Positions 15,522 to 61,531 of a stretch of 64,000 nucleotides of DNA are shown here, piece after piece. Under the pieces are notes generated by a model. It saw only the letters and a program-made list of their open reading frames with translations, was not told the DNA's origin and searched no databases. The position numbers were made by a program, and so were the translations under genes. Source of the DNA: an uncultured Fidelibacterota bacterium (GTDB lineage Bacteria > Fidelibacterota > Marinisomatia > Marinisomatales > UBA1611); the NCBI GenBank assembly GCA_913043235.1, contig CAJWLO010000005.1, positions 9,597-73,596 on the forward strand, given 5' to 3'. Position 1 is the first letter of the stretch. Each line of letters begins with the position of its first letter.

Positions 15522-16949
15522 ATGAGGAAATATTGTTTAATAATTACTACTTTTTTCTCGATACTATGGTCTCAGCATTATCAGGTTGACTTTCCACCAG
15601 ATGAATTTCAAGATCGTTGGAGAGGTGTATTTGATCAGATCGGCGAAGATGCGGTTGCGGTAGTTCAGGGGATTCCACTAACCAATGGATTCATCATGCC
15701 CAGACAATCCAATGCATTTTATTATTTATCCGGTATTGAATCTCCTCATGCTTATATACTTTTAGATGGGCGGGAGAAAAAAGTAACCCTATACATGCCT
15801 CCCAAAAATGAAAGGTTAGAGCGCAGTGAGGGAAAAATTTTAAATGCAGATGATAAACGACTCATCAAAAAACTGGTGGGTGTAGATGCAGTAAAATCGA
15901 CAGAAGAGATGCGCGAAAATTTTCCTCCAAACATGAAGCGATCCACAACCATTTACACCATGTTTACGCCGGCTGAAGGACAGGGACAGAGCAGATATGA
16001 ATTAGAAGTGGCAAATGCATCCATCGCTTCAGATTCCTGGGATGGCCGTATCAGTAGAGAAGGACGATTGGTACAGCTATTGAAATTGAGAAACCGTCAT
16101 AATGAAGTAAAAGATCTGACCCCAATAATTGATAATTTGAGGAGTGTAAAAAGTCCTCGGGAAATTGCGCTGATACGACGAGCCTCCCAACTGGCAGGGT
16201 TGGGTATGATCGAAGCCATTAAAAGTACAGAACCCGGCGTGTGGGAATATCAATTGGATGGTTCGGCACGTTATATATTCCTGATCAATGGTGCGCGATT
16301 AGAAGCTTATAGGTCAATCACTGCATCAGGCACCAAAAACATCATCAATGCCCACTATTACAGAAATGATAGTCAATTGAAAAGCGGTGATCTGGTCCTT
16401 ATGGATTATGCTCCGGATTTTCGGTATTATGTTAGTGATATTGGACGGATGTGGCCCGTGAATGGAACCTATGAGCCATGGCAAAGAGAATTACTCCAAA
16501 TCATTTTGGAATACCGAAATGTAGTATTGGATATAATTCGCCCCGGAGTTACTACAGATGAAATATTAGATGAAGCCAGAGAGCGAATGAAACCCATTAT
16601 GAAGGATTATAAATTTTCAAAGCAAATCTATAAAGAAGCGGCAGAAAAAATGGTTAGGACCGGTGGAGGTGTATTATCTCATCCTGTGGGTTTGGCTGTT
16701 CATGATGATGGCCCTTATCGCTATGGACCTTTGAAAGTAGGTCACGTATTTTCCGTTGATCCCCAGATGTGGGTACCCAAAGAAAATCTATACCTTCGCT
16801 ATGAGGACACGATTGTGGTTACTGAAAATGGGAACGAAAATTTCACTGATTTTTTACCTTCTGAATTGGATGATCTTGAAGCCTTAACAAGACAAAAAGG
16901 CATCGTCCAGCAATTCCCGCCAAATAAAATGAAATGGAATTATAAATGA
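15522..16949 (+). CDS. M24B Xaa-Pro aminopeptidase (aminopeptidase P-like), exported
   Basis: GGAGGTG at 15513-15519 precedes ATG 15522, so the track's TTG 15486 is rejected. Metal ligand pattern: LVLMDYAPDFRYYVSDIGR, SHPVGLAVHD, LRYEDTIVVTENG. N-terminal hydrophobic signal. Confidence 0.85.
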   Translation: MRKYCLIITTFFSILWSQHYQVDFPPDEFQDRWRGVFDQIGEDAVAVVQGIPLTNGFIMPRQSNAFYYLSGIESPHAYILLDGREKKVTLYMPPKNERLERSEGKILNADDKRLIKKLVGVDAVKSTEEMRENFPPNMKRSTTIYTMFTPAEGQGQSRYELEVANASIASDSWDGRISREGRLVQLLKLRNRHNEVKDLTPIIDNLRSVKSPREIALIRRASQLAGLGMIEAIKSTEPGVWEYQLDGSARYIFLINGARLEAYRSITASGTKNIINAHYYRNDSQLKSGDLVLMDYAPDFRYYVSDIGRMWPVNGTYEPWQRELLQIILEYRNVVLDIIRPGVTTDEILDEARERMKPIMKDYKFSKQIYKEAAEKMVRTGGGVLSHPVGLAVHDDGPYRYGPLKVGHVFSVDPQMWVPKENLYLRYEDTIVVTENGNENFTDFLPSELDDLEALTRQKGIVQQFPPNKMKWNYK

Positions 16950-19363
16950 AGAAACAGCCAATTAAAAAAATAATTCATTGCAGCTTATTAATTGTAAGCA
17001 CATCACTTCTAATAGGAGATGATGGATATAGGATGCCCCCGAAGGCGATTGCAGATTTGGTGGATGCACCTGCAACACCGCTTGTCAATCTGAGTCCTGA
17101 CAAAAGCAAAATTCTCATAATGGAGCGGTCCAGTTTGCCTTCTATTAAAGAGTTATCCCAACCGGAGTTGCGGTTAGCGGGCCTTCGTATTAACCCTATG
17201 ACAAATGGACGGAGTAGAACCAGTTATTATATCGGCTTAGCAATTCAGGATATTCAATCCGGAAAACAGAGAAAAGTGAAAGGGCTACCCAATAATGGAC
17301 GCATTTCTAACGTAACCTGGGCACCGGATGGAAATCATATCGCCATGGCTGTTACCAAAGGGAATGAGATAATATTATATATTGCCAATGTGAGTTCAGG
17401 GAAGGCAAAACAATTATTAAAAACACCATTAAATGCCATTTATGGGTCTGCCTATCATTGGTTGTCTGATAGCAAAGGATTGTTGGCAAAAACTATTTTG
17501 AAGGGGAGGGGAAACCCACCTGAAAAACTAACCACTCCATCTGGGCCAGTCATTCAGGAAAATGCGGGCCAAAAATCTCCAGCGCGGACATATCAGGATC
17601 TCCTTACCAATGCTCATGATGAAGCACTCTTTGAATATTATATGCATGCACAGATAGTTCATGTTTCTCTAAAAGGGAAAACCAAAAAGATTGGACGATC
17701 TGGAATTATTCGTAGAGCGGAGCCATCGCCAGATGGAGAATATATTCTGATGGAAACCATCCATCGGCCCTTTTCATACTTGGTTCCAGTCTACCGATTT
17801 CCAACTCGGATTGAAATTATTAATAAAAATGGAAAACATGTACATACATTGAGAGATATGCCATTGGCTGAGTCAATCCCCATTGGCAGAGATGCCGTTA
17901 TCGATGGCCCTCGATCTTTTGGTTGGCGGTCCGATGTGGGATCCACGATTTATTTTACAGAAGCATTGGATGGTGGTGATCCTAGAGTGGATGTATCATT
18001 TCAAGATGAAGTATTTACATTAAAGTCTCCATTTAATGGTTCTCCAAAATCCTTAATCAAATTGCCATTACGTTATAGTGGAATCCGTTGGGGAAATGAA
18101 TCTGTTGCATTGGTTTCCGATCGAAAGTGGACTGAAAGAAGGACTACAACTTGGCGAGTGAATCCAGAAACGGGTAGGTCAGAAAAAATAATCGATCGTT
18201 TATATGAAGATCGTTATAATGATCCCGGATCGCCTTTAACAGTATTAAATGAATATGGTCGAGCTGTTCTTTATATACAAGACGGGGTTACTATACTTAT
18301 GTCTGGTATCGGCGCTTCACCTGAAGGGGATAAACCATTTTTAGATAAGTTCAATATGGATACGAAAGAGACCAAACGGTTGTGGCGGAGTAAACCCCCA
18401 TACTATGAACGCGTGGTTTCAATCATGGATAAAAAAGGAGAAGTGATTCTTACGAGTCGAGAAGCAAAAGATGAACCCGCAAACTATTATAGGCGTGACG
18501 TAAAAAACGGTAAAAAGGAGTCTGTTACTTCATTTTTACATCCCTATCCTCAAATGAAGGATGTTTATAAAGAAATGCTTACCTATAAGCGGGATGACGG
18601 TATAGATCTTTCTGCCACCTTATATTTGCCACCGGGACATCAGCCGGGAGATGGACCATTGCCCTTGTTGGTTTGGGCCTATCCAAGGGAATTTAAAACT
18701 GCTCAAGCAGCGTCACAGGTAGTGGGATCTCCTCACCGGTTCTCTCGAATCAGTCCCACTTCTCCCTTAATTATGCTGTCATATGGTTATGCAGTACTCT
18801 CAGGCGCTACCATGCCGATTATTGGAGAAGGATCAGAGGAACCCAATGACAATTATGTAAAACAGTTGGTGGCCAGCGCACAAGCGGCAGCAGATATTAT
18901 GGTGGAAAGAAATATCACCAAAAAAGATCAAATCGCCATTGGAGGACACTCCTATGGTGCATTCATGACAGCAAATTTGTTGACCCATTCTGATATTTTT
19001 CAAGCAGGAATTGCCAGAAGTGGTGCCTACAATCGTAGTTTGACACCATTTGGGTTTCAATCGGAACAACGTACATTCTGGGAAGCACCTGAAATTTATT
19101 TTTCCATGTCTCCTTTCATGCATGCCCATAAAATGAATGAACCAATTCTCCTTATCCATGGGGATGCTGATAATAACTCTGGTACTTTTCCGGTACAGAG
19201 CAAGCGTTACTACCATGCTTTAAAAGGACATGGAGCCACAGCCAAATTGGTGATGCTGCCACATGAAAGCCATGGGTATCGTGCCCGGGAATCGGTAATG
19301 CATATGTTATGGGAGACAGCGAATTGGCTCGATACTTATGTAAAGAAGGGAAACAAGGAGTAA
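16946..19363 (+). CDS. S9 family serine peptidase with N-terminal beta-propeller region
   Basis: ATGA overlap with the upstream gene. Triad in Ser-Asp-His order: GGHSYGAFM, IHGDADNN, PHESHGY. Signal peptide present. Confidence 0.9.
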   Translation: MKKQPIKKIIHCSLLIVSTSLLIGDDGYRMPPKAIADLVDAPATPLVNLSPDKSKILIMERSSLPSIKELSQPELRLAGLRINPMTNGRSRTSYYIGLAIQDIQSGKQRKVKGLPNNGRISNVTWAPDGNHIAMAVTKGNEIILYIANVSSGKAKQLLKTPLNAIYGSAYHWLSDSKGLLAKTILKGRGNPPEKLTTPSGPVIQENAGQKSPARTYQDLLTNAHDEALFEYYMHAQIVHVSLKGKTKKIGRSGIIRRAEPSPDGEYILMETIHRPFSYLVPVYRFPTRIEIINKNGKHVHTLRDMPLAESIPIGRDAVIDGPRSFGWRSDVGSTIYFTEALDGGDPRVDVSFQDEVFTLKSPFNGSPKSLIKLPLRYSGIRWGNESVALVSDRKWTERRTTTWRVNPETGRSEKIIDRLYEDRYNDPGSPLTVLNEYGRAVLYIQDGVTILMSGIGASPEGDKPFLDKFNMDTKETKRLWRSKPPYYERVVSIMDKKGEVILTSREAKDEPANYYRRDVKNGKKESVTSFLHPYPQMKDVYKEMLTYKRDDGIDLSATLYLPPGHQPGDGPLPLLVWAYPREFKTAQAASQVVGSPHRFSRISPTSPLIMLSYGYAVLSGATMPIIGEGSEEPNDNYVKQLVASAQAAADIMVERNITKKDQIAIGGHSYGAFMTANLLTHSDIFQAGIARSGAYNRSLTPFGFQSEQRTFWEAPEIYFSMSPFMHAHKMNEPILLIHGDADNNSGTFPVQSKRYYHALKGHGATAKLVMLPHESHGYRARESVMHMLWETANWLDTYVKKGNKE

Positions 19364-19366
19364 AAT

Positions 19367-20524
19367 ATGGCCAAACCAAAAGATATGTCATTTGATACCA
19401 AAGTTATTCATGCTGGTGAGCCAGATCCAAAAATTGAAGGAGCAGCCAATGTTCCAATATTCCAAAGCTCTACTTTTGAATATTCTGGTCAAAAAAATTA
19501 TGATGATTTAAAATATATCAGATTAAATAACACACCTAATCATATTGTATTACATGATAAACTAGCTATCCTTGAAGGTGCTGATCGTGCGCTTGTTACA
19601 TCATCTGGAATGAGTGCAATTACAACATCGCTCTTAACGTTTCTTAAATCAGGTGATCATCTACTAGCCCATAAAACATTATATGGGGGTACTGCCGATT
19701 ATGTTAAGCATGACCTGCCGCAATATGGTATTGAATTTGATTTTATTAACGCAATGGATCCAACTGAATGGGGTTCTAAGTTAAAATCAAATACGAAAGT
19801 CATTTATGTGGAAACAATAACAAATCCTCTGATAGAAGTTGCACCATTAGAAAAGGTCGTCGCATTCGCAAAAGAAAATGGTTTAATCTCAATGGTTGAC
19901 AATACGCTTGCTAGTCCTGCACTATTCTGTCCGATTCAGCTAGGCTTCGACATTTCACTTCATTCTGCAACAAAATATTTAAATGGGCATACGGATATTG
20001 TTGCAGGAGCCATTATTGGTAATGACCTTCATATGGAAAAGATTAATTCAAAATTAAATCATCTTGGAGGATGCCTTGATCCAAACGCGTGTTTTTTACT
20101 GCAAAGAGGCATGAAAACATTATCCTTAAGAATAAAAAAACAGTGTAGTAATGCAATGAAGATCGCTACTTTTTTAAATGATCATGAAATGGTTTCACAC
20201 GTTAATTATCCAGGGCTTGAATCAGATCCAAGTCATAAAAAAGCTAAAGAATTGTTATGTGGTTTTGGTGGTATGTTAAGCTTTACTATAAAAGGCGGTA
20301 TTGAGGAAGCTGATAATGTGATGAACAAATTAAAAATTCCTATGTGTACAGCGAGTATGGGCGGAGTAGAATCATTAGTAACTCGACCTGTGCAAACATC
20401 TCATTCATTGCTTAGTGATGATGAACTTTTAGAATCAGGCATAGATAAATCACTTATTCGTTTAGCTGTTGGGATTGAATCAGCGTCTGATTTGATTAAT
20501 GATCTCAATCAGGCTTTAAATTAA
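19367..20524 (+). CDS. Cys/Met-metabolism PLP-dependent enzyme (methionine gamma-lyase / cystathionine lyase or synthase family)
   Basis: PLP-lysine motif SATKYLNGHTDIVAG, N-terminal TKVIHAG, 385 aa, no signal peptide. Subfamily cannot be assigned by eye. Confidence 0.9.
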   Translation: MAKPKDMSFDTKVIHAGEPDPKIEGAANVPIFQSSTFEYSGQKNYDDLKYIRLNNTPNHIVLHDKLAILEGADRALVTSSGMSAITTSLLTFLKSGDHLLAHKTLYGGTADYVKHDLPQYGIEFDFINAMDPTEWGSKLKSNTKVIYVETITNPLIEVAPLEKVVAFAKENGLISMVDNTLASPALFCPIQLGFDISLHSATKYLNGHTDIVAGAIIGNDLHMEKINSKLNHLGGCLDPNACFLLQRGMKTLSLRIKKQCSNAMKIATFLNDHEMVSHVNYPGLESDPSHKKAKELLCGFGGMLSFTIKGGIEEADNVMNKLKIPMCTASMGGVESLVTRPVQTSHSLLSDDELLESGIDKSLIRLAVGIESASDLINDLNQALN

Positions 20525-20553
20525 CAAAAAATTAACTTTCGAAGGATTTTCTA

Positions 20554-21987
20554 ATGAACAGAGTTTTTCTATTATTATTTTATTTTTTTAGTTCACAATA
20601 TATAAATGGTCAAGTCACGCCATTACAAAACATAATAAATGATATTGATAGTGATGATTATCTAAATCACAATCAATATTCTTTTTTATCTCCTATAGTA
20701 AATGATAAAGATGTTGTTTTGCTAGGTGAATCAATTCATTTGACTCGTGAATTTCCATTATTACGAATAGGAATGATCAAATATCTTAATCAGTATCATG
20801 ATTTTAATGTCATTGCTATGGAAGGAGGAGCTACGGATTATTGGGTAACGCAAGATATACTATTTTCTTCCGAAAAAAATGAATCTGATTTTACAGAAGC
20901 ACTTTCTTCATTCCCTTTTATTTGGAATACACCTGAAGTACAAAAACTAATTGAATATCAAGCTTCAACACTTCAAAGCACTAATCCATTATATATTACA
21001 GCATATGATGTGCAGCAAGGTATTGGACAGGGAACTAAAAATGAGAAAGCATTTAAATTACTAGCTGAAAGACTCATGCGTTATTCTGATCCTCCGCAAA
21101 ATTTTATTTTAGAGGATTGGGTAGCTGCAATGTCTCCAATATCCAATCATTGTATAAAATATGAATCTTCAGATTATCAAAAAGTGCTATCAGCAATTGA
21201 TTTATTTGAAGAATGGGTGGATTCAGTAGCGCCGGAGATAAAGAAGCAGTATCCGAATATACCCCATGATATAATATTAAAAACAATGCCAAAAAGTTTT
21301 AGAGCTTCTTTGGCTTTATGTGATGAGTTAGGCGGGTTTAATATGAGTCGTTATAAAGTAGTCCGTGATTCCTTAGGCTTTATAAATACGATGGATCTTA
21401 TTCAAACAATACCAAATAACAAAATACTGATCTGGGGTCATCTTTCTCATGTTTATTATGATAGTCAAGATAATGTGATTAGTGAATATGGTGAATTCAA
21501 AAATCTCGCTGTTGGTCCAACTGTAGGAGAACGTTTAAAAGATGCATTGGGCTCAAAAGTTTATACAATTATTCCATTCGCTGAATCCGGTTCAACTATT
21601 TTAATCTATAATGATCTGAATCTAGATATTGGATATTCAAAAATAGAGAGCAGCTCAAAACTTGGAGATTTATTAAGTAAAGCGAGTGAAAAAGATTTCT
21701 TTCTTGATCTTCAATCATCTGCTTTAACGGCTGAAGATTATCCTGAATTATTTACAAAGCAACCTTTTGCGCTTGAAGGTCTAAAAAGTGATTTTAAAAT
21801 TAACTATACTTCTGATATGGATGGTTTGATATGGATAAAGAAAATACAAGCACCTGATTGGCCTTTATTTAAAATCATACTTATTTCAAGTCTCCATTAT
21901 AAGACACAAATAAGTCTTATATTTATATTAGGTTTAGGCTGGATTATTTTTTCAAAGATGAAAAAAAGAAAAAATATTAATAAATAA
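20554..21987 (+). CDS. erythromycin esterase (Ere) family-like protein with C-terminal membrane anchor
   Basis: VVLLGESIHLTREF..FNVIAMEGG resembles the Ere GE(A/P)(T/S)HG..EF motif. ILIWGHLSHVYY resembles the Ere W(A)HN(A)H motif. C-terminal hydrophobic segment ISLIFILGLGWIIF followed by KMKKRK. Confidence 0.55.
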   Translation: MNRVFLLLFYFFSSQYINGQVTPLQNIINDIDSDDYLNHNQYSFLSPIVNDKDVVLLGESIHLTREFPLLRIGMIKYLNQYHDFNVIAMEGGATDYWVTQDILFSSEKNESDFTEALSSFPFIWNTPEVQKLIEYQASTLQSTNPLYITAYDVQQGIGQGTKNEKAFKLLAERLMRYSDPPQNFILEDWVAAMSPISNHCIKYESSDYQKVLSAIDLFEEWVDSVAPEIKKQYPNIPHDIILKTMPKSFRASLALCDELGGFNMSRYKVVRDSLGFINTMDLIQTIPNNKILIWGHLSHVYYDSQDNVISEYGEFKNLAVGPTVGERLKDALGSKVYTIIPFAESGSTILIYNDLNLDIGYSKIESSSKLGDLLSKASEKDFFLDLQSSALTAEDYPELFTKQPFALEGLKSDFKINYTSDMDGLIWIKKIQAPDWPLFKIILISSLHYKTQISLIFILGLGWIIFSKMKKRKNINK

Positions 21988-22000
21988 TAAGGATATAAAA

Positions 22001-22975
22001 ATGAAAAGAATCTTTTTAACCATATTTTTGCTAGGATCAATTATTGCTCAAACACCAGTCAAAATGACGGGTCTTCATGAGGCAGAGTATTTTGATTTGA
22101 AGTCCAAATCTGTAGATGAAACTTTTCGAATATTTGTTGCAAAACCATTTCCACTGGAACCCGATAAGAAGTACCCGGTAATTTACGTGTTGGATGGAAA
22201 TGGTTTATTTGGAATGACAATGGAAGTACAGCGGATGATGGCATTAGGAATGGAATTGCCACCGGCATATATAATCGGTATCGGCTATGCAGTAGATAAC
22301 GGTTTTACGGAAACTATGGCAAAACGTTGGAGAGATTATACTCCAACAGCTGGTGGAGAATTAGAGGCTATGACTAAAGTATCAATTGATCCAACAGGAA
22401 CGGTAGAGGGTGGTGGCGGCTCAGACTTTTTAAAATTTCTTCAAGAGGAATTAAAACCATTAATTGAATCTAACTATTCCGTGGACCCAAATGACGCAAC
22501 CATTGCTGGGATTTCATTGGGAGGTCTTTTCCCTAGCTGGGTGTTACTTAATCAGCCAGAGACTTTTCAGCGTTATGTGATCATAAGTCCTTCCATCTGG
22601 TGGAATCAAGAAGAGGTTTGGAAATGGGAATCTCACTTTGCTCAAAATCATAATGATATTAATGCAAAAGTGTTTGTCACGGCTGGTGGCCTTGAAACAA
22701 GTGAAGAATTAAAAAAAACAATCCAGCAGGTTCTTAATATGGGCGGTCCAACGGCTGAAATGTATAAAAACATTTTTAAAGCATATGATAAATATGGTTG
22801 GCCAAAAATGGCAGAGATTACCCCAGTGTTTGTTGATAAGTTGAAATTGCGTGGTTATAAAAACCTAAAAATTCACTGCCATAATATGCCAGATGAAACT
22901 CACACGTCAGTTGGAGCTAGTGCTCTTTCCCGTGGATTACGCTATGTATTTGATCATTGGGATCCAAATCAATAA
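22001..22975 (+). CDS. alpha/beta hydrolase, 'putative esterase' family (IroE/enterochelin-esterase-like)
   Basis: YPVIYVLDGNGLFG plus the nucleophile elbow IAGISLGGLF. Signal peptide present. Confidence 0.7.
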   Translation: MKRIFLTIFLLGSIIAQTPVKMTGLHEAEYFDLKSKSVDETFRIFVAKPFPLEPDKKYPVIYVLDGNGLFGMTMEVQRMMALGMELPPAYIIGIGYAVDNGFTETMAKRWRDYTPTAGGELEAMTKVSIDPTGTVEGGGGSDFLKFLQEELKPLIESNYSVDPNDATIAGISLGGLFPSWVLLNQPETFQRYVIISPSIWWNQEEVWKWESHFAQNHNDINAKVFVTAGGLETSEELKKTIQQVLNMGGPTAEMYKNIFKAYDKYGWPKMAEITPVFVDKLKLRGYKNLKIHCHNMPDETHTSVGASALSRGLRYVFDHWDPNQ

Positions 22976-22987
22976 AAGGAGCAAAAA

Positions 22988-24211: not shown

Positions 24212-24229
24212 GCACAAAAAAGGCGATTG

Positions 24230-38390: not shown

Positions 38391-38392
38391 GC

Positions 38393-41693: not shown

Positions 41694-41826
41694 CTTTAGA
41701 TTATTTAATAAAAAGTAATAAATAGAAATAACTGCTAAGTTAGCCTTCTCAAAAACCTAAAAATGGGAGGGGATCATCGCCAAGCCGCACAAAATTTCTT
41801 TAATTAAATGCGTTTACCAACGGTTA

Positions 41827-48317: not shown

Positions 48318-48333
48318 TCCAAGGAGGATAATA

Positions 48334-50397: not shown

Positions 50398-50398
50398 T

Positions 50399-51406: not shown

Positions 51407-51431
51407 ATTTAATTTCATAGGAGTAAAAACA

Positions 51432-53420: not shown

Positions 53421-53451
53421 GAATATAGATGTCAATAAGGAATAAAATTGT

Positions 53452-54723
53452 GTGATACTTAAAGAAAAAATAAAGCCATCAGAAAAAAAAGCACTAATTT
53501 GGGCTTTTTCTTATTTTTTCTGCCTATTAGCTAGTTACTATATAATTCGGCCACTAAGAGATGAGATGGGAATTTTTGGTGGTATTGAAAATTTGCCTTG
53601 GCTGTTCACTGGAACATTCTTGGTAATGCTCATTGCAGTACCTTTTTTCGGATGGGTAGCATCTAATTACCCTAGGGAAAGATTTATCCCATACGTCTAT
53701 GGATTTTTTATCTCAATTATAATCACCTTTTATTTGCTCTTCTCCAGTGGTTTCAATCATACTCGCATTGCTCAAGCATTCTATATCTGGGCAAGTGTTT
53801 ATAATTTATTTATTATATCAGTTTTTTGGAGTTTTATGGCAGATATTTTTTCCAATAGCCAAGCCAAAAGATTATATGGATATATTGCTGCTGGGGGAAC
53901 GATCGGAGCTATTGCCGGACCTGCCCTAACATTATTTCTAGTAAAATTTACAGGCCCAATTAATTTGTTGATTCTCTCAGCATTATTATTAGTGGGAGCA
54001 ATAATTTGTGTAAAAAAATTGAATCAATGGCAATTATCTTTTAATAAAGATAAAATGACTGAAAATACTGAGGATATGAGTATTCCTATGGGTGGGAATC
54101 CTTTTGCCGGTATAAAACTTGTTGCAACTTCTCATTATTTAATGGGCATATGCCTATTAATGCTTTTATATACTACTCTTTCAACTTTTTTGTATCTCCA
54201 ACAAGCAGAAATAATTAAGATGAATATATCTGACCCTTCCCAACGCACAGCAATTTTTGCTGGGATGGATTTCGCTGTGAATATTTTAACTGTTTTAACA
54301 CAAGTATTTGTTACAGGAAAGATTGTTAATTTTTTTGGCTTAGGTAAAACGTTAATGATAATTCCTATTGGTTTAGCGATAGGTCTATTGATTTTAGGAT
54401 TGTCACCAATTTTATCGGTACTTATTGTGGTTCAAGTATTGCGGCGGGCAGGGAATTATGCAATTATGAAACCGGCTCGTGAAATGCTGTATGTTTCCCT
54501 TGGAAAAGAAGAAAAGTACAAGGCGAAAAATTTTATTGATACCACAATTTACCGAGGAGGAGATGCCGTAAGTGCTTGGTTCTTTGGTGGCCTCAGAGCT
54601 CTTGGCGTCGGATTAGCAGGTATCGCATTTATTGGTGTCCCACTTGCGTTGGTTTGGGCGTGGGTATCTTTTAGACTGGGTAATGAGAATGAAAAAATGA
54701 ACACCAAGGCTAAATTAACATAA
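53452..54723 (+). CDS. polytopic inner-membrane transporter, MFS-type with ATP:ADP-antiporter (TLC/Npt)-like N-terminal signature
   Basis: About 11-12 hydrophobic segments. KKALIWAFSYFFCLLASYYIIRPLRDEMG resembles the TLC-family N-terminal pattern (..F..Y.ilR..KD..). GTG start. Substrate unknown. Confidence 0.6.
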   Translation: MILKEKIKPSEKKALIWAFSYFFCLLASYYIIRPLRDEMGIFGGIENLPWLFTGTFLVMLIAVPFFGWVASNYPRERFIPYVYGFFISIIITFYLLFSSGFNHTRIAQAFYIWASVYNLFIISVFWSFMADIFSNSQAKRLYGYIAAGGTIGAIAGPALTLFLVKFTGPINLLILSALLLVGAIICVKKLNQWQLSFNKDKMTENTEDMSIPMGGNPFAGIKLVATSHYLMGICLLMLLYTTLSTFLYLQQAEIIKMNISDPSQRTAIFAGMDFAVNILTVLTQVFVTGKIVNFFGLGKTLMIIPIGLAIGLLILGLSPILSVLIVVQVLRRAGNYAIMKPAREMLYVSLGKEEKYKAKNFIDTTIYRGGDAVSAWFFGGLRALGVGLAGIAFIGVPLALVWAWVSFRLGNENEKMNTKAKLT

Positions 54724-54753
54724 TTTCAACCTAGCAAAAGAAGGAGTATAGAA

Positions 54754-55881
54754 ATGAAATCATCTAGAAGAGAATTCATGATCAAAAGCGCAGCCGCTGC
54801 TGCGGCATTAGGGCTGGGAATGTCTTATGGAAATACCCTAAAAACAAAAAAGACCAAAAAAGCAAAAAAATCTTTAAAAATCCTTATTTTGGGTGGCACT
54901 GCATTTACAGGCCCTCATCTAATTAAATATGCTATGGATCGTGGACACTCCATTTCTGTTTTTAATCGAGGTAAAACAAAAGCAACAGTTCATAAAGAAC
55001 TATTTAATAAAGTAGAAAAACTGGTAGGCGATCGCAATGACAATTTAGAAGCCTTGAAAGGGCGCCAATGGGATGCAGTGATTGATAATTATGCTGTTTA
55101 TCCTCGATGGGTGAGACAGACCGCTGATATTCTAAAAGATAATGTGGATACGTATCTATTTAATTCGACTTTAAGTGTACACGCCGCTTTTTCAAAGCGA
55201 GGGTTAAATGAAGATGATCCAGTTGCAACTACGGATACACCTGATAAAGAAGATGGCAGTTTATATGGACCACTGAAAGCATTATGTGAAGATGTAACTC
55301 GCAATGTTTTTAAAGAACGGGCAATCATCGTCCGACCCCATTTAATTGTTGGCCCTGGAGACACAACGGACCGATTTACCTATTGGCCGGTTAGAATACA
55401 GAAGGGCGGGGAAATCTTGGCACCTGGGAATATAAATCGTCCTGTTCAATATATAGATGCGAGGGACCTTTCTCAGTTTATGATTCATTTAATTGAAAAT
55501 AAAACTAGCGGTACATTCAGTGGAGTAGGCCCTTTATCAGGGTTAAGTATGGCTGAATTACTTTATGGTATGAGAGCTGTGGTGAGTAATGATATTTCAT
55601 TTACATGGGTCGATCAAGAATTTCTCACTAAAAATGAAGTTAGACCATGGAACGAAATGACGACATGGATGCCTGAAGGAGGGGAATGGGATGGATTTGG
55701 GTCTTTTGATAATAGTAAATCTGTAAAGGCAGGACTGACCTACAGGCCACTGGCAGAAACAGTAAAAGATACTCTTGACTGGTGGGAGGGTCTTCCTGAA
55801 GAAAGAAGGAATAAACCAAAAGCAGGTCTCGATTATAAAAAAGAACAAAAGGCACTAAAGGCTTGGAAGCTAAATCAATGA
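54754..55881 (+). CDS. Tat-exported NAD-dependent epimerase/dehydratase (extended SDR) family protein
   Basis: Twin-arginine signal SSRREFMIKSAAAAAALGLG. Rossmann ILILGGTAFTGPHL. AAGGAG SD. Confidence 0.85.
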   Translation: MKSSRREFMIKSAAAAAALGLGMSYGNTLKTKKTKKAKKSLKILILGGTAFTGPHLIKYAMDRGHSISVFNRGKTKATVHKELFNKVEKLVGDRNDNLEALKGRQWDAVIDNYAVYPRWVRQTADILKDNVDTYLFNSTLSVHAAFSKRGLNEDDPVATTDTPDKEDGSLYGPLKALCEDVTRNVFKERAIIVRPHLIVGPGDTTDRFTYWPVRIQKGGEILAPGNINRPVQYIDARDLSQFMIHLIENKTSGTFSGVGPLSGLSMAELLYGMRAVVSNDISFTWVDQEFLTKNEVRPWNEMTTWMPEGGEWDGFGSFDNSKSVKAGLTYRPLAETVKDTLDWWEGLPEERRNKPKAGLDYKKEQKALKAWKLNQ

Positions 55882-55931
55882 AGTAATGCTTGAAATAGAA
55901 GCGACAAACTCGTGCGAAAGGTTTTGAAAAT

Positions 55932-57491
55932 ATGAAAATGATGACTAGAAATATTATACTAATATTAATCTTATTTACCGTTGTTAAAGGTGTGTCTCAA
56001 GAATCAGTACCAGAAGGATTGGAAAAACGTATTGAAAATATTTATAAAGAATGGAATATACCTGGTATGGCAGTAGCAATTATCAAAGATGATAAAGTTA
56101 TCTATGCGAAAGGATTTGGTGTTCGCGAAATAGGTAAGTCTGCAAGAGTAGATGAAAGGACTCTTTTTGCAGTTGCTTCAACGACAAAAGCAATGACTGC
56201 TGCTACTTTGGGTATGCTTGTAGATGAAGAAAAACTAAGTTGGAATGATCGGGTTATAGATGTTTTACCTGGTTTCCGTATGTATGATGCATATGCAACT
56301 GCTGAGATGAGAGTTCGGGATTTATTAACCCATAAAAGTGGTTTGTCTAGAGGTGATGGAGCGTGGCTTGAGTTTCCTATTTCTAGAGAAAAAGTTTTAC
56401 ATCAAGTTCGTTATTTAAAACCTTCATACAGTTTTAGATCAAAATACCATTATAGTAATTTAATGTATTTGGTGGCAGGATTGGCATCAGAGGAAATACA
56501 TGGCGATACTTGGGATAACGTAATGTATAAACGATTATTTAAACCATTAAATATGAGTAGGAGTCTGTCAACGACAAGCGAGATTAATAAACGCAGTAAT
56601 GTAGCAACGCCTCATGCCAAAGAAAATGGATTTTTTTCAGAAGGAAATTTTAAGCCAATAACTCATCGTAAAGCTGACGGCATTGCTCCTGCTGGAGCAG
56701 TTTATTCAAATGTATTAGAAATGGCCAATTGGGTTAGACTAAATATGAATAATGGTGAGTTTGAAGGAAAAAGAATATTAAGTGAATCAGTGATGAATCA
56801 AATGCATACGCCCCAGATGCATTATAAATTTAACCCAAGATTCCCTGAGGAAGAAGAAGTCACGAATTTTAAAACCTATGGTCTTGGTTGGTTAATAGAT
56901 GACTATAGAGGACATAAGCGGGTTAGTCATGGAGGTTATTTAGACGGATTTAGTACTTGGATTGGTTTTATTCCATCAATAAACGTAGGATGGGTTGTAA
57001 TGAATAATGGTGGTATTCGTATGACCCAGGTGGTTGGAACTGAGATTATCGATGCTTTTTTAAATGTAAATAATAAAATTGATTGGTCTATGTTGGAGAT
57101 GAAATATCAGAAGGATAATCCATCATATGGATATCAAGTTTCCGATAGCTTATTGGCTGATATAGTATCTAACCGTGTTAACGGAACCAGCCTTCGCCTG
57201 GATAATTCTGGTTATACAGGTGAATACTCAAATGAATTTTATGGTAAACTAAGAGTTTATGAAAAAAATGGAAAACTTTTTATATCAAGAGGAAATAAAT
57301 TGCAGGGTATTTTAAATCAATGGCATTATGATACTTTCCGTGTAAGATGGGATTTATTAGCAGATAGAGTCAGGGGATGCTGCGGAGGAGGAAATGAATT
57401 CATTACCTTTCATTTTAATATGAAAAATGAAGCTGCTGTGTTGGAAAGAATCATTGATGGAAATCCAACATATTTTCATAAATTAGATTAG
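55932..57491 (+). CDS. S12 serine hydrolase, tandem copy 1
   Basis: ASTTKAM (SxxK), YHYSNLMY (YxN), VSHGGYLDGF (HxG). C-terminal YTGEYSNEFYGKLRVYEKNGKLFI (DUF3471-like). Confidence 0.85.
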   Translation: MKMMTRNIILILILFTVVKGVSQESVPEGLEKRIENIYKEWNIPGMAVAIIKDDKVIYAKGFGVREIGKSARVDERTLFAVASTTKAMTAATLGMLVDEEKLSWNDRVIDVLPGFRMYDAYATAEMRVRDLLTHKSGLSRGDGAWLEFPISREKVLHQVRYLKPSYSFRSKYHYSNLMYLVAGLASEEIHGDTWDNVMYKRLFKPLNMSRSLSTTSEINKRSNVATPHAKENGFFSEGNFKPITHRKADGIAPAGAVYSNVLEMANWVRLNMNNGEFEGKRILSESVMNQMHTPQMHYKFNPRFPEEEEVTNFKTYGLGWLIDDYRGHKRVSHGGYLDGFSTWIGFIPSINVGWVVMNNGGIRMTQVVGTEIIDAFLNVNNKIDWSMLEMKYQKDNPSYGYQVSDSLLADIVSNRVNGTSLRLDNSGYTGEYSNEFYGKLRVYEKNGKLFISRGNKLQGILNQWHYDTFRVRWDLLADRVRGCCGGGNEFITFHFNMKNEAAVLERIIDGNPTYFHKLD

Positions 57492-57501
57492 GAGGAGTAA
57501 A

Positions 57502-59031
57502 ATGAAAAAATACAATAAACTAACAAAATCAATGATCTCTACAGCATTATTTTTATTTATGCTTACATATGTTCAAGGAATGCAGCAGGAGTCTATACCT
57601 CAAGGATTAGAACAGCAAATTGAACAGATTCGTAAAGATTGGGATATTCCTGGAATGGCGGTAGCGATTATCAAAGGTGATAAAGTTATTTATGCAAATG
57701 GATTTGGTGTTCGTGAATTAGGTAAGTCAGCTAAAGTAGATGAAAAGACATTATTTGCGGTTGGATCTACTACCAAAGCAATGACAGTTGCCACATTGGG
57801 TATGCTTGTTGATGAGGGTAGACTAAGTTGGGATGATCGAGTTATAGATGTATTGCCCGGTTTCCGTATGTATGATGCATATGCGACGGCTGAGATGAGA
57901 GTCCGTGATTTATTAACACATAAAAGTGGATTAACCCGAGGCGATCAAGTTTGGTTTGGATCTCCGATGGATCTACAAGAAGTTTTTCATCAAATACGCT
58001 ATCTAAAACCAGCATATAGTTTTAGATCTAATTATCACTATCAGAATCTAATGTATTTGACGGCAGGATTGGTCTCAGGTGAAATACATGGTGATAGTTG
58101 GGATAATGTAATGTATAAAAAATTCTTTAGACCTCTGAAAATGAGAACAAGCGTCACAAACCTTAAAGATTTGGCCAAAAGAAGTAATGTTGCCACTCCT
58201 CATGGAATTGTCGATTACAGCGGAAAACTTGAGCCCATTGAAGATCGCAATTTGGATAATATTGCTCCAGCAGGTTCGGTGTATTCAAATGCATTAGAAA
58301 TGGCTAATTGGATAAGATTAAATATGAATAAAGGTGAGTTTGAAGGTAAAAGAATATTAAGTGAAAAAGTGATGAATGAGATGCATACACCTCAAATGCA
58401 TATGTCTTATTCCACGCCAAATCAAGTAACAAATTTTAGTTTATACGGCTTAGGGTTTAGAGTCTCAGATTATAGAGGGCATAAAATGGTGAGTCATGGA
58501 GGTGGTATTGATGGTTTTATAACTTGGATTGGTTTTATCTCTGATATTGATCTAGGCTGGGTAGTTGTTAATAATGGAGGCAGTCGCGCATCCACATTAG
58601 TAGGTTATGAAATTATTGATGCCTTTATGGGTCTAGCTGATGATATCGATTGGTCAGGAGATGCAAAGAAATCTTATGATAAAAGTATGGCACGCCTTGA
58701 TAGTCTAAGAAATGATGTTGATTCTCGAAGAGTTTTTAGCACAGAAACAAGATTGCAAAACTCAGGATATGCAGGTGACTATAATCATGAATTTTATGGT
58801 GAAATGACAATATCAGTCAGTGGCGATAAGCTAATTATTTCTCGAGGAGATGCTTTAAATGGCACATTAAACCATTGGCATTATGATACTTTTCGGGTAC
58901 GATGGGATGAGCCAAGGGAGCGAGCAAGATATGGCAATGAATTTATTTCATTTCACTTTAATGCCAAGAATGAGGTGGTTTATCTAGAAAGATCCTTAGA
59001 TGGTGCACCAAGGTATTTTAAGAAAAAATAA
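57502..59031 (+). CDS. S12 serine hydrolase, tandem copy 2
   Basis: GGAGGAG at 57491-57497. GSTTKAM, YHYQNLMY, VSHGGGIDGF. Long blocks are shared with copy 1 (VIDVLPGFRMYDAYATAEMRVRDLLTHKSGL). Confidence 0.85.
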   Translation: MKKYNKLTKSMISTALFLFMLTYVQGMQQESIPQGLEQQIEQIRKDWDIPGMAVAIIKGDKVIYANGFGVRELGKSAKVDEKTLFAVGSTTKAMTVATLGMLVDEGRLSWDDRVIDVLPGFRMYDAYATAEMRVRDLLTHKSGLTRGDQVWFGSPMDLQEVFHQIRYLKPAYSFRSNYHYQNLMYLTAGLVSGEIHGDSWDNVMYKKFFRPLKMRTSVTNLKDLAKRSNVATPHGIVDYSGKLEPIEDRNLDNIAPAGSVYSNALEMANWIRLNMNKGEFEGKRILSEKVMNEMHTPQMHMSYSTPNQVTNFSLYGLGFRVSDYRGHKMVSHGGGIDGFITWIGFISDIDLGWVVVNNGGSRASTLVGYEIIDAFMGLADDIDWSGDAKKSYDKSMARLDSLRNDVDSRRVFSTETRLQNSGYAGDYNHEFYGEMTISVSGDKLIISRGDALNGTLNHWHYDTFRVRWDEPRERARYGNEFISFHFNAKNEVVYLERSLDGAPRYFKKK

Positions 59032-59066
59032 GAGTTTTTATTTCAACTAGATTATTTTTTGCAAAA

Positions 59067-60260
59067 ATGATGATAAAATACATTCCAATTATAATTACGT
59101 TGTTTTCATCCATGCTATACTGCCAGACAATTGCAGTAAAAGCGGGAATAATCTATACGGCCAATAAAGGAAAAGTATATAAAAATGGTATCCTTTTATT
59201 AAAGGACGGGAAGATTAAAGCAGTTGGAAAAAATATTAGGATACCATCGAAAGCTAAAATACTAGACTATTCAAATTATGAAATTGTGCCGGGTTTCATA
59301 GATAACCATTCCCATATTGGGACTGATCCAGAAAACCTAAATGAATTTCCAGTGGTATTTGGTCCACAACACAAAATTATTGATATTTTATCTCCTGACT
59401 CTTCTTATTGGGAAAAAGTTTATAAAGGTGGAGTTACAACTGTTGTTACCGGACCAGGAAGCGGAGAAGTCTCCTCAGGTCAAGCAGTCGTAATTAAAAC
59501 ATGGGGTGGTACAATTGAAGAAAGGGTCCTCAAGGAAAAAGGTGGTGTTAAAATTGCTATGGGCAGAAAGAGAAATTCACCAAAGACCAGCATGGGGACA
59601 ACTGCATTATTGAGAGAAAAATTCATAAAAGCAAAAGAATACGATAAAAAAATAAAAGAATGGAAAAAGAATAAGAAAGATACTCCACGTCCTGAAAAAG
59701 ATTTGGCCCTAGAGGCTTTTGCAGACGTTTTATCAGGTAAAGATAGAATTAGATCGCATGTACACTCGGCGCATGATATTTTATCTATTTTAAGGTTAAA
59801 AGATGAGTTTGGCTTCGATCTGACACTACACCATTCAACAGAAGCATATAAAGTGCCCAAAGAAATTGCTAAACGTAACGTTAAAGTTGTTGGGATGCCC
59901 TTATTCGCAAGAATTGGTATCAGTGATAGTGTGATGTATACAGGTAAAATAATGAATGATCATGGTATTCTTTTCGCTTTTCATACAGATGACCCTGTAG
60001 TAGCATCAAAATGGCAGCGAGGTAATGCAGGAATGGGAATACGATATGGTATGACTGAACAGTCCGCCTTGGAAGCTGTTACAATTAATCCGGCTATGAT
60101 TGCAAAAGTGAGTGACCGTGTCGGCTCATTGGAAGAAGGAAAAGATGCGGATTTTATAGTAATTAATGGTACATGGTATGAGCCCAAGTCCATCATTGAA
60201 AAGGTTTATATCGATGGGAAGAAAGCTTTTGATCGTTCTATTGAGCAACGGGATAAATGA
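59067..60260 (+). CDS. amidohydrolase (cog1228-type, canonical HxH)
   Basis: [44 protein letters not shown]-terminal [12 protein letters not shown]. Signal peptide present. Confidence 0.85.
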
Positions 60261-61531
60261 TTAATATGATAAGATACAATTTTACTAGGAAATATTTAAT
60301 CTATCTGTGTGCATCATTCTTGTTAATTATTAATCATGCGCTTTATGCCCAAGCCATAGCTCTAAAGGGCGGGAAAATTATAACAATTTCGGATGGAGAT
60401 ATAATTAATGGGACGATATTGATCGATAAAGGAAGGATAAAAGCCGTCGGGAAAAACATCAAAATTCCTAAAGAAGCTGAGATTATTGATATAGGTGGCA
60501 AAATAGTGATGCCTGGTCTTATTGATGCCATGACTTATTATGGTATTGACCCTAACGACTTAAATGAAACATTAAAACCTATTTCTCCAGAATTAAGAAT
60601 TATTGAAGCATATTACCCATTTGGGGATTTTGGTGATGGATCCGGGGAAATACGCGCGAATGACCTTCTGAGCGGCGGAATAACAACAATCTATATAGCT
60701 CCAGGCGACGCCACAATTTTAGGTGGTCAGGGAGCTGTTGTTCAAACTGCTGCACCTTCATTCGAAGCAATGATTCTTAAGATTCCATCAGCTATTGATA
60801 TGACCTTGGGTTCAAAGCCTGGCAAATTAAATAGAAAAGATAACAGGACACCTGTCACAAAAATGGCTGCCATATCTCAGCTCCGAGAAACTTTTATAAA
60901 AGCTCAGGAATATTTAAGCAAAAATGATAATCCCAGAAATTTAAGTATGGAATCTATCGGTCTAATGTTGAATAGAAAAATTCCGGCTAGAATTCAAGCA
61001 AATAGCCCTGGCGATATCAGAGCTTCAATGAATCTAGCAACCGAATTTAAGTTTGACTTAATTATTGATGGTGGAGCATCATCTGACAGTTATATCGATG
61101 AAATTGTAAAACGTAAGATTCCTGTTATCCTTGGGCCAGTATCCCATCCATATATTTCTGGTGATGAGATTCCTGAGCATTCGGAATATCCATCAATCGA
61201 TGAAGGGTTAGCTGGTAGGTTAGATAAGGCAGGTGTGAAGGTAGCTTTTGGGAGCTTTTCTTATGGTTTAGGTTCTCTTGCAAAAGGAATTACGGGGAAA
61301 TGGTTATTAATCGATGCCGCTATATCTACAGGGTACGGAATGTCTGAAAAATCAGTACTACGAAGTTTAACGTTAAGTGCCGCAGAAATTTTAAATATTG
61401 ATGACCAAGTTGGCAGTATTGAAATAGGTAAAAAAGCAGATTTAGTTGTTTTAAATGGAGACCCCTTAAGTATAAAAACATGGGTAGATCGGGTTTATAT
61501 TTCCGGCAGCTTAGTCTATAAAAAACAATGA
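60257..61531 (+). CDS. amidohydrolase-fold protein lacking the HxH metal motif
   Basis: ATGA overlap with 59067-60260. [32 protein letters not shown], then [12 protein letters not shown] where HxH is expected. C-terminal [14 protein letters not shown]. Confidence 0.8.

Follow-up and report, generated by a model that had tools for sequence, protein, structure and literature searches.

What does a pelagic bacterium do with 46 kb of consecutive genes, most of which are predicted to encode exported hydrolases? Such an array occupies positions 15522–61531 of the stretch considered here (the window, 64,000 nt), which is part of contig CAJWLO010000005.1 from an uncultured Fidelibacterota bacterium (assembly GCA_913043235.1). 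In a preliminary description of the window, the array was interpreted as a locus for the utilisation of D-amino-acid-containing or recalcitrant peptides, located between two SusC-like transporters. On balance, we favour the interpretation that it belongs to a composite locus of approximately 60 kb, fed by a SusC/SusD pair, with which pelagic Marinimicrobia (SAR406/Neomarinimicrobiota) scavenge peptides and amides in the periplasm, and which includes a component capable of acting on D-residues. A more specific version, in which a strain-variable island, together with the operon split by it, serves solely as a D-peptide utilisation locus, is possible, and we propose it only tentatively.

Families were assigned by Pfam, specific functions by the NCBIfam cut-offs and nearest structures by PDB searches. 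Export was called by a heuristic considering hydrophobicity, n-region, h-region, lipobox and Tat (twin-arginine translocation) signal, not by SignalP. The window was extended by a related contig, L103, which is 100% identical to window positions 61654–64000 (window coordinate = L103 coordinate + 60452), giving a composite of 82 kb. L-numbers denote the related contigs or loci that were compared.

The list of open reading frames (ORFs) bears out the described organisation. Twenty-seven consecutive ORFs are found on the plus strand from 15486/15522 to 61531; 22 of the 26 junctions measure 35 bp or less, and seven are overlapping. The individual junctions quoted before are exact, with ATGA overlaps at 16946 and 60257, and a gene at 19367 that begins 3 nt past the preceding TAA stop. 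The Pfam search gave back all family counts of the preliminary description: six S12 proteins (PF00144, 193–228 bits; 24227, 30628, 32185, 40260, 55932 and 57502), four S9 (16946, 46254, 48307 and 51384), three S15 (27077, 38387 and 44384), one M24B (15522), one M19 (22988) and five members of the amidohydrolase superfamily (28887, 33636, 36954, 59067 and 60257), with single genes for a Beta-lactamase2/class A protein (50384), a Cys/Met pyridoxal phosphate (PLP) enzyme (19367) and a major facilitator superfamily (MFS) protein (53452). The counts were right, but four genes had been left out: an erythromycin-esterase-like protein (20554), a PF00756 esterase (22001), a DUF5916 protein (42253) and a Tat-exported short-chain dehydrogenase/reductase (SDR; 54754). 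Among the array ORFs neither a glycoside hydrolase nor a classical endopeptidase family was found by Pfam, in agreement with what had been stated. Nearly all products are predicted to be exported, the PLP enzyme and the MFS protein excepted as described, although the DUF5916 protein as called also lacks a signal.

The boundaries, on the other hand, had to be redrawn at both ends. A SusC-like importer had been placed at each end of the array, which was thought to stop at 61531. Between the upstream SusC/SusD genes and the array lie a DUF5107 gene and a conserved six-gene sugar operon on the minus strand (9079–15275). The upstream SusC (1169–4054) is therefore unrelated and does not belong to the array. 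At the other end, SusC is encoded on the same strand 134 bp past gene 27, and the locus continues approximately 14 kb beyond the window. Adjacent full-length genes for SusC (1024–1029 aa) and SusD (444–459 aa, lipobox LTGC) were found in L007–L010 and L103, so that genes 01–30 form a run of 30 consecutive co-directional genes on the plus strand. Beyond gene 36 the genes are unrelated and on the minus strand, including an acetoacetate-CoA ligase and a BNR/sortilin protein. The genes of the locus are as follows.

Gene 01, 15522–16949, plus strand: exported M24B Xaa-Pro-aminopeptidase-like protein, core (Peptidase_M24 and AMP_N; signal peptide).
Gene 02, 16946–19363, plus strand: exported S9 serine hydrolase of 805 aa, core (Peptidase_S9; GHSYG motif).
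Gene 03, 19367–20524, plus strand: cytoplasmic Cys/Met PLP enzyme of the methionine-gamma-lyase/cystathionine family, the final core gene before the island (PF01053, 421 bits; no signal peptide).
Gene 04, 20554–21987, plus strand: exported erythromycin-esterase-family protein, opening the island (Erythro_esteras, 53 bits; weak match to EreC 6XCQ).
Gene 05, 22001–22975, plus strand: exported PF00756 esterase with esterase D/enterochelin-esterase fold (Pfam Esterase; GISLG; weak NCBIfam match to enterochelin esterase).
Gene 06, 22988–24211, plus strand: lipoprotein homologue of M19 membrane dipeptidase (Peptidase_M19, 376 bits; lipobox IYGC).
Gene 07, 24227–27073, plus strand: exported S12 protein fused to a PAF-acetylhydrolase-like alpha/beta esterase domain (Beta-lactamase and PAF-AH_p_II; SVSK/YSN/HGG and GWSFG).
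Gene 08, 27077–28882, plus strand: exported S15 hydrolase of the CocE/NonD family (S15 and PepX_C; TIGR00976 over its cut-off).
Gene 09, 28887–30647, plus strand: exported, divergent amidohydrolase, putatively of the N-acyl-D-amino-acid-deacylase family (PDB 1M7J, 188 bits, and 3GIP).
Gene 10, 30628–32181, plus strand: exported S12 protein (PF00144; SISK/YSN/HGG; top PDB match Pab87, 127 bits).
Gene 11, 32185–33582, plus strand: lipoprotein of S12 (PF00144; SVSK/YSN/HSG; NCBIfam D-aminopeptidase 147 bits, cut-off 443).
Gene 12, 33636–36932, plus strand: exported TolB/Tricorn-type double beta-propeller fused to a COG1228-type amidohydrolase (PD40 and Amidohydro_1/3; HSH).
Gene 13, 36954–38390, plus strand: exported amidohydrolase of the molinate/phenylurea-hydrolase subgroup (PDB matches; N-x-H instead of H-x-H).
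Gene 14, 38387–40255, plus strand: exported S15 hydrolase of the CocE/NonD family (S15 and PepX_C; TIGR00976 over its cut-off; GGSYGG).
Gene 15, 40260–41693, plus strand: lipoprotein of S12 (PF00144; SVTK/YNN/HGG; lipobox FIGC).
Gene 16, 41761–44220, plus strand: DUF5916 protein with an anomalous start, called from GTG 42253 (DUF5916, 229 bits).
Gene 17, 44384–46234, plus strand: lipoprotein of S15, near the alpha-amino-acid ester hydrolases (GISYGG; PDB matches).
Gene 18, 46254–48317, plus strand: exported propeller-S9 peptidase, acylaminoacyl/Dpp5-like, tandem duplicate of 19 (S9 and PD40; 78% identity).
Gene 19, 48307–50397, plus strand: exported propeller-S9 peptidase, tandem duplicate of 18 (S9 and PD40).
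Gene 20, 50384–51406, plus strand: exported class-A-beta-lactamase-fold protein with an atypical omega loop (Beta-lactamase2; closest PDB entry LRA-5, an environmental class A enzyme).
Gene 21, 51384–53420, plus strand: exported propeller-S9 peptidase (S9 and PD40; GWSYGG; NCBIfam Dpp5 271, cut-off 900).
Gene 22, 53452–54723, plus strand: polytopic MFS/TLC-like transporter, candidate inner-membrane importer of the products (MFS_1 and TLC).
Gene 23, 54754–55881, plus strand: Tat-exported SDR of the NAD-dependent epimerase/dehydratase family (Epimerase; SRREFMIK motif).
Gene 24, 55932–57491, plus strand: exported S12 protein with C-terminal DUF3471 (PF00144 and DUF3471; STTK/YSN/HGG; top PDB match Pab87).
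Gene 25, 57502–59031, plus strand: exported S12 protein with DUF3471, paralogue of 24 (62%; Pfam and motifs).
Gene 26, 59067–60260, plus strand: exported COG1228-type amidohydrolase with HxH kept (Amidohydro_1; NHSH; ATGA overlap with 27).
Gene 27, 60257–61531, plus strand: exported amidohydrolase-fold paralogue without the HxH metal motif (Amidohydro_1; DAMTY instead).
Gene 28, 61654–64000 (cut by the window end; full length, 1029 aa, in L103), plus strand: TonB-dependent transporter of the SusC/RagA type (CarbopepD_reg, Plug and TonB barrel).
Gene 29, in L103, plus strand: SusD lipoprotein.
Gene 30, in L103, plus strand: TolB-propeller with CehA/McbA metallohydrolase (NCBIfam 183, cut-off 80).
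Gene 31, in L103, minus strand: exported D-aminoacylase-family protein (PRK09061 486, cut-off 340).
Gene 32, in L103: lipoprotein of 562 aa, predicted D-aminoacylase (PRK09061 214, cut-off 340; homologues so named by NCBI and JGI).
Gene 33, in L103: cytoplasmic, dipeptide-epimerase-like member of the enolase superfamily (top match L-Ala-D/L-Glu epimerase).
Gene 34, in L103: cytoplasmic DgcN-like DUF1611 protein (sole NCBIfam match the N-acetyltransferase DgcN).
Gene 35, in L103: polytopic membrane protein, candidate permease.
Gene 36, in L103: CDO-like cupin.

Comparison with relatives shows that the array, which had been regarded as one unit, is not. The locus was found on at least 18 Tara and other marine contigs, with UBA7303 as the sole close species-level genome, and proteins at least 90% identical to those of the locus are labelled Candidatus Marinimicrobia/Neomarinimicrobiota in NCBI. 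As the nearest homologues outside the clade are from Gemmatimonadota, a low-GC member of that phylum was considered as the source, but these labels, which the flanking genes share, and UBA7303 as nearest genome led to its rejection. A sister lineage, which has been assembled far more often, is represented by three independent contigs (L104–L106) with the same flanks and orthologues that are 66–92% identical. In these the order is compact: genes 01-02-03 are directly followed by 32, a SnoaL-like protein, a flavin amine oxidase and 33-34-35-36. The compact junction is found in L108/L109 too, where composite position 20497 is joined to 70696. In that population the upstream flanking DNA is 97.6% identical to the window and the neighbouring proteins are 96–99% identical. 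The compact junctions in these relatives imply that genes 04–31, from 20554 to approximately 70273 of the composite (49.7 kb, 28 genes including SusC/D), are a presence/absence polymorphism at the strain level, i.e. a flexible island within a conserved operon. The core operon consists of the genes for M24B (01), S9 (02), PLP enzyme (03), predicted D-aminoacylase (32), enolase (33), DgcN-like protein (34), permease (35) and CDO-like cupin (36). Genes 01–03 of the array thus belong to the core, and genes 04–27 together with four more to the island. The orthologue of gene 01 in the compact L104 is 84% identical, and those of gene 02 are 73% identical in L104 and 98% in L109. Homologues of gene 32 are very common in Marinimicrobia.

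The island carries its own SusC/SusD and approximately 24 exported hydrolases (six S12, three S9, three S15, M19, five amidohydrolases and a further D-aminoacylase, propeller-CehA/McbA, two esterases and the class-A-fold protein), as well as the MFS protein and the Tat-exported SDR. GxSxG nucleophile elbows are present in the S9 and S15 proteins. Paralogues are 22–35% identical, except for the tandem pairs 18/19 (78%) and 24/25 (62%). Apart from two recent tandem pairs the paralogues are therefore old, and the array represents a diversified arsenal and not a recent amplification.

The borders of the island hold none of the mobility features that were looked for (tRNA, Rfam family, integrase, transposase, flanking direct or inverted repeats). 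Island and core cannot be told apart by the GC or GC3 of their genes, core genes 33–35 being equally AT-rich, and there is thus no compositional proof of horizontal transfer. Outside the small clade, the nearest homologues of 07, 12 and SusC are Gemmatimonadota proteins (50–71%), which would be compatible with, but is not proof of, transfer between phyla. The PLP enzyme (19367–20524) is 77% identical in the island-free L108/L109 and 97% identical in the island-bearing L107. Its allele and the island vary together, which points to a recombination tract extending beyond the island. Two genes of L104 (11681–13616), encoding a SnoaL/DUF4440-like protein and a PF01593 flavin amine oxidase, are located between the D-aminoacylase and the epimerase-like gene and are absent from the window lineage. 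This flavoprotein was considered as a D-amino-acid oxidase and rejected, as it belongs to the PF01593 amine oxidases.

That the exported enzymes disassemble imported peptides in the periplasm had been proposed before. The array is not bounded by two SusCs as then assumed, but the exo-acting, exported battery is joined to SusC/SusD, and this linkage is recurrent. Orthologues of SusC/D (49–54% and 46–51% identical, respectively) are flanked by related hydrolases in the Gemmatimonadota-type genomes L077, L100 and L101. In L077 these are a propeller-amidohydrolase (59% to gene 12), an S9 (50%) and an S12-DUF3471 protein (42%); in L100 two S9s, an S12-DUF3471 protein, a PF01266 oxidoreductase and another S12; and in L101 an M14 peptidase, an amino-acid permease, an S15, an S9 and an S12-DUF3471 protein. 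The homologues of gene 25 that adjoin SusC/D in these three genomes are 34–42% identical to it. In L093, a class-A-like gene and the S12-PAF-AH fusion lie immediately upstream of the SusC/D pair. Furthermore, the Gemmatimonadota homologues of gene 12 (50–71%) often adjoin SusC/D, S9 or Tat-SDR genes. The recurrence of orthologous SusC/D beside S9, S15 and S12 genes ties the importer to these hydrolases, and the locus in the window has the appearance of a small SusCD peptide module that has been greatly enlarged. Small modules of this kind clearly exist, unremarked, in Gemmatimonadota genomes. Homologues of gene 23 (39–47%) adjoin propeller-amidohydrolase genes in many Gemmatimonadota (L018, L070, L031, L038, L039, L044 and L066).

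The D-capable component is indicated by several families. In all six S12 proteins the motifs SxxK, Y(S/N/Q)N and H(G/S)G are aligned in register, with HxG and not KTG as the third motif. The three that were searched against PDB (07, 10 and 24) matched Pab87 first, followed by ClbP, Flp, DAP and alkaline D-peptidase, at 76–127 bits; for gene 07 the top matches were Pab87, ClbP and DAP. Pab87 is D-stereospecific and removes C-terminal D-Ala from muropeptides (PMC2651629). Membership of the S12 proteins in CubicO was rejected, the motifs YAEAF/L, FFYLN and ERY (PMC2651629) being absent from the alignment.

The M19 family accepts L-D dipeptides, as known from renal dipeptidase and Sco3058. The M19 protein of the locus (06) has retained HND(45–47), IEGAH, DLSHVS and FSHSN, i.e. 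an intact catalytic metal site, its zinc-ligand positions having been placed by what we take to be the corresponding residues of DPEP1 and Sco3058. Since the ligands are kept, the protein is of the real dipeptidase type, unlike the PvdM-like members with inactivated sites (PMC9305348).

Three genes assigned to the D-aminoacylase family (09, 31 and 32) are present in the locus. Gene 09 is below the cut-off of PRK09061 (182, cut-off 340) and has its best PDB matches in a D-aminoacylase (1M7J) and an N-acyl-D-Glu deacylase (3GIP), at approximately 188 bits. With the ligands of the Alcaligenes faecalis enzyme as reference (His67/His69, Cys96, His220, His250 and Asp366), the equivalents of HxH, His220 and His250 are aligned, and an insertion of approximately 100 aa interrupts the Asp366 region. 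Genes 33 and 34 are adjacent (L103 11716–13855). The former has the KxK, D/E/D, K and DxD motifs and scores 209 for L-Ala-D/L-Glu epimerase (cut-off 500) and 170 for DgcA (cut-off 400); the latter scores 122 for DgcN (cut-off 480). Carriers of dgcN have been noted in Marinisomatia (PMC12363236).

A number of observations weigh against a peptide-scavenging locus with a D-capable component. The Cys96 ligand of gene 09 is replaced by Ala/Asp (GGADG), and gene 27, lacking HxH, may be non-catalytic. Hallmark enzymes of murein-peptide breakdown were not found in the 82 kb examined, neither Amidase_2/3, S66 LdcA, M15 VanX, NlpC/P60, M14 MpaA and AmpG nor a MurNAc-L-Ala amidase or an MpaA/YkfC-type gamma-D-Glu(-diaminopimelate) peptidase. 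Nor do the 82 kb encode a racemase, D-amino-acid dehydrogenase or D-transaminase, and no catabolic gene for free D-amino acids was found in the window. Almost all array proteins missed the curated equivalog thresholds of NCBIfam. Those that passed were the three S15s, with the generic CocE/NonD model, and 50384, by a narrow margin, with that for class A beta-lactamases. For the S12 proteins the D-aminopeptidase model gave 43–147 bits (cut-off 443), gene 01 scored 164 bits as Xaa-Pro aminopeptidase (cut-off 465) and gene 03 was under the cut-off of every equivalog. With nearly all specific-function models under their cut-offs, stereospecificity has to be inferred. No array enzyme is close to a characterised one, and the S12, S9 and S15 families also hold L-peptidases and esterases. 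A regulator domain was not found in any ORF of the window or L103. Scans for sigma-70 promoters and intrinsic terminators between 15 and 55 kb gave counts equal to those of shuffled sequence, i.e. at chance level, and operon structure is therefore unproven; that the genes of the locus are co-expressed is a presumption.

Gene order, finally, is not conserved. A strain that is 84% identical keeps the order of the window, but order and content vary in others: rearranged or variable versions were found in L012, L090, L094 and L107, the order being 10-11-09-07-12-13-14-04-05 in UBA7303 and 03-04-05-06-09-15-like in L107, and gene 08 is gone from the 92%-identical strains L090–L092, where a 69-aa ORF takes its place. 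Selection may thus act on gene content only, or not at all.

The alternative that best withstands these results is ordinary scavenging of L-oligopeptides, including proline-rich and N-acylated ones, with the D-names as annotation heritage. The classical activity of M24B, S9, S15 and COG1228 amidohydrolases is that of Xaa-Pro or acyl-peptide exopeptidases, RagAB imports ordinary peptides, the window genes are below the cut-off for all D-specific models and enzymes of D-amino-acid catabolism are missing. The nearest structures of gene 18, 8WT1 (318 bits) and the Deinococcus acyl-peptide hydrolase 5YZM, are S9 proteins of the acyl-peptide hydrolase/carboxypeptidase types. We nevertheless regard this explanation as unlikely, because three D-aminoacylase-family genes, a DxD-bearing epimerase-like enolase and a DgcN-like gene occur in one locus, because the six S12s are of the HxG peptidase type, with Pab87 first for those searched, and because such redundancy is hard to justify if a few L-peptidases suffice. 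The original idea of a D-residue substrate is strengthened by the epimerase- and DgcN-like genes and the extra D-aminoacylases beyond the window, but it is weakened by the missing murein-peptide enzymes and the unproven stereospecificity. A D-amino-acid bias of the locus is plausible from its gene families, and has more support than when it was first suggested.

If the locus serves to scavenge peptides and amides, including D-containing ones, it may work as follows. SusD would capture oligopeptide-like dissolved organic matter, which SusC would import with energy from TonB. The propeller S9s, the propeller-amidohydrolase and the propeller-CehA/McbA protein would admit only unfolded oligomers. 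Periplasmic and partly lipoprotein-anchored exo-hydrolases would work from both ends, with M24B, S15 and S9 proteins trimming the termini, M19 cleaving dipeptides, D-aminoacylase-family proteins removing N-acyl groups from D-residues, and S12s making cuts of the DD-carboxypeptidase or D-aminopeptidase type. The S12, M19 and D-aminoacylase members would thereby handle the D-residues that stop ordinary peptidases, and the two esterases and the PAF-AH-like domain could open ester links. Amino acids and dipeptides would cross the inner membrane via the MFS protein (22) or the permease (35). In the cytoplasm the epimerase-like (33) and DgcN-like (34) proteins could turn D-Glu-type products into L-forms, and the PLP enzyme (03) and the CDO-like protein (36) may process sulphur amino acids. 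The likely substrates are peptidoglycan-derived peptides and other D-residue-containing, N-blocked or depsi-peptides. Gene 22 was also considered as AmpG-like, which was rejected, as no AmpG or other specific NCBIfam match was obtained even at an E-value of 1e-3.

A second alternative is that nonribosomal (lipo/depsi)peptides or xenosiderophores are the target, with esterases opening lactones, deacylases uncapping and S12s cutting D-bonds. This would account for the erythromycin-esterase-like protein, the Fes-type PF00756 esterase, the PAF-AH-like esterase fused to an S12, ClbP among the S12 matches, the D-aminoacylase-family genes, the TonB-dependent import and the absence of murein-specific amidases and glycosidases. 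The esterase matches are weak (40–75 bits), however, siderophore-reductase or iron-related genes are lacking, and genes resembling those for L-Ala-D/L-Glu epimerase and DgcN suggest D-Glu, a residue characteristic of murein. We consider it decidedly unlikely, and it largely overlaps with the peptide-scavenging interpretation that we favour.

It may also be that there is no common substrate and that a recombination hot spot gathers, duplicates and shuffles unrelated exported hydrolases, their clustering being due to the mechanics of integration. The presence/absence between near-identical strains, the variable gene 08, the shuffled order in UBA7303 and L107, the recent tandem duplicates and the lack of a regulator are all in line with this. 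Against it stand the extreme bias of the content (approximately 24 of 28 island genes encode exported hydrolases from six families, accompanied by their own SusC/D), the retention of the same gene set despite reshuffling and the recurrence of the same families with orthologous SusC/D in another phylum, and the borders lack integrase, transposase, tRNA and flanking repeats. This explanation is improbable.

Gene 20 is over the NCBIfam cut-off for class A beta-lactamase (208, cut-off 200) and near-identical NCBI records are named accordingly. STYK, SDN and KTG are present, and the omega loop carries an insertion of approximately 50 aa, with DRST where R-W-E166 is expected. Its annotation as a resistance enzyme is probably mistaken. 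Renal dipeptidase, an M19 enzyme, hydrolyses carbapenems. A detoxification or resistance island, in which class-A and class-C-like beta-lactamase folds, M19, Ere-like, alpha-amino-acid-ester-hydrolase-like and carbamate/urea-hydrolase-like enzymes destroy antibiotics or xenobiotics, would fit the score of gene 20 and the nearest matches of genes 13 (molinate/phenylurea hydrolases), 17 (alpha-amino-acid ester hydrolases) and 30 (CehA/McbA carbaryl-hydrolase-family domains), but is highly improbable, as active uptake by a TonB-dependent importer runs counter to what resistance would require, the S12s all have HxG and not KTG, gene 20 has no recognisable E166, the organism is an oligotrophic pelagic bacterium and the enzymes are far from true resistance enzymes, with scores 5–10 times below the cut-offs of the exception models.

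Several individual genes deserve mention. In the PDB ranking of gene 13 (36954–38390), molinate hydrolase 4UB9 (304 bits) and PuhB (243 bits) are followed by Xaa-Pro dipeptidase and the Arg carboxypeptidase Cc2672, and its product could be a natural-substrate relative of the herbicide-degrading molinate hydrolase and phenylurea hydrolase B. Gene 17 matches 1MPX (406 bits) and 4PF1 (408 bits) better than cocaine esterase (205 bits). The frame of the DUF5916 gene is open for 164 codons 5' of the called GTG (41761–42252). This stretch has no ATG, GTG or TTG; GGAGG stands ahead of it, and it encodes an IDGVLDDAVW motif and a segment resembling a signal peptide. All metagenome gene callers shorten the protein to 651 aa, and a non-canonical ATC/ATT start may be used. 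A 26-like/27-like pair is adjacent also in the Gemmatimonadales locus L011 (4525–6994), which hints at a two-subunit enzyme of one catalytic and one non-catalytic protein. Many contigs stop at the 18/19 duplicate, and the Tara scaffold L095 (15975–17815) bridges this pair with 100 Ns, collapsing the two copies to one, an assembly artefact that would undercount these genes. Upstream of the locus, the unit at 1169–8842 consists of the SusC/SusD pair (1169–5280), a small lipoprotein and a 985-aa DUF5107 and TPR protein. The minus-strand operon 9079–15275 encodes a xylose-isomerase-like TIM barrel, a 3-keto-disaccharide hydrolase, two GFO/IDH/MocA oxidoreductases, a nucleoside:H+-symporter-like MFS protein and DoxX. 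The operon, whose arrangement is the same in L104, is reminiscent of an oxidative 3-keto-glycoside pathway.

Of the dissolved organic nitrogen in the ocean, a large part that cycles slowly consists of D-amino acids and remnants of peptidoglycan, and to our knowledge it is poorly defined which organisms and genes remove peptide-bound D-residues. The locus offers a clonable gene set from one of the most abundant phyla of the dark ocean (SusC/D, six S12s, M19, three D-aminoacylase-family proteins and the epimerase/DgcN-like pair) and a testable candidate for the recycling of bacterial cell-wall debris and the fate of peptide-bound D-amino acids in the sea. As some strains have the island and others that are near-identical do not, its distribution relative to depth, particles and D/L ratios can serve as a test of its ecological value. 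It also draws attention to proteins that are misleadingly labelled by annotation pipelines, such as the class A beta-lactamase. Should the locus indeed be dedicated to D-peptides, a sink for a major refractory fraction of the dissolved organic nitrogen in the sea would be defined genetically, in the form of a flexible island that is traded and has its closest outside homologues in Gemmatimonadota. In a limited search of the literature we met neither an account of a locus with such a size and composition nor the phrase peptide/protein utilization locus.

How, then, does the locus compare with known systems? The D-stereospecific S12 enzymes (Pab87/CubicO, Ochrobactrum DAP, Bacillus alkaline D-peptidase, Streptomyces R61 and ClbP) share the fold and the SxxK/YxN/HxG triad with the S12s of the locus, whereas the latter are exported proteins or lipoproteins and not cytosolic cages, one being fused to an esterase and two carrying DUF3471. 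The YcjG/YkfB salvage of murein peptides and the DgcN-DgcA pathway of marine bacteria have in common with the locus a KxK...K/DxD enolase gene adjoining a DUF1611/DgcN-like gene, here preceded by a D-aminoacylase and followed by a permease. In contrast to these pathways, the scores are well under the equivalog cut-offs, LdcA, MpaA, YkfC and AmpG are missing, and the two genes are located outside the window, in the conserved core and not in the island.

Fidelibacter multiformis IA91, the only cultured member of the phylum, uses exogenous muropeptides and cell-wall fragments as a source of carbon and energy, and this reliance on muropeptides has been traced to the ancestor of the phylum (PMC11652737). 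We count this precedent in favour of the D-amino-acid interpretation. Strain IA91 belongs to the same phylum as the window organism (Fidelibacterota = Marinimicrobia); it is an anaerobic subsurface bacterium, from class AB16, and is unable to make a wall of its own, whereas the window organism is of a pelagic marine lineage.

The nearest parallels in working are from Bacteroidota. RagAB is an oligopeptide importer of the SusCD type (10.1101/755678), and in Porphyromonas gingivalis, as proposed here, a SusC/SusD-family pair and exo-acting S9-type peptidases import first and disassemble in the periplasm afterwards; SusC/D and RagA/B are compared here at the family level. The peptidases of P. gingivalis are scattered, whereas approximately 25 hydrolases are clustered with the importer in the Marinimicrobia locus, which is dominated by S12, amidohydrolase and D-aminoacylase families, none of which has a role in the RagAB system. 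With the polysaccharide utilisation loci (PULs) of Bacteroidota the locus shares tandem susC/susD genes beside co-directional genes for exported and lipoprotein hydrolases, and the nature of a strain-variable accessory unit. It differs in having peptidases, amidases and esterases in place of carbohydrate-active enzymes (the ORFs of the window and of L103 yielded no glycoside hydrolase, polysaccharide lyase or carbohydrate esterase family) and no hybrid two-component system, SusR or extracytoplasmic function sigma/anti-sigma regulator. The lack of such enzymes and of known PUL regulators implies that this is not a polysaccharide locus, though it is PUL- and RagAB-like in its working, and our interpretation would extend the concept of the SusCD utilisation locus to peptides outside the Bacteroidota.

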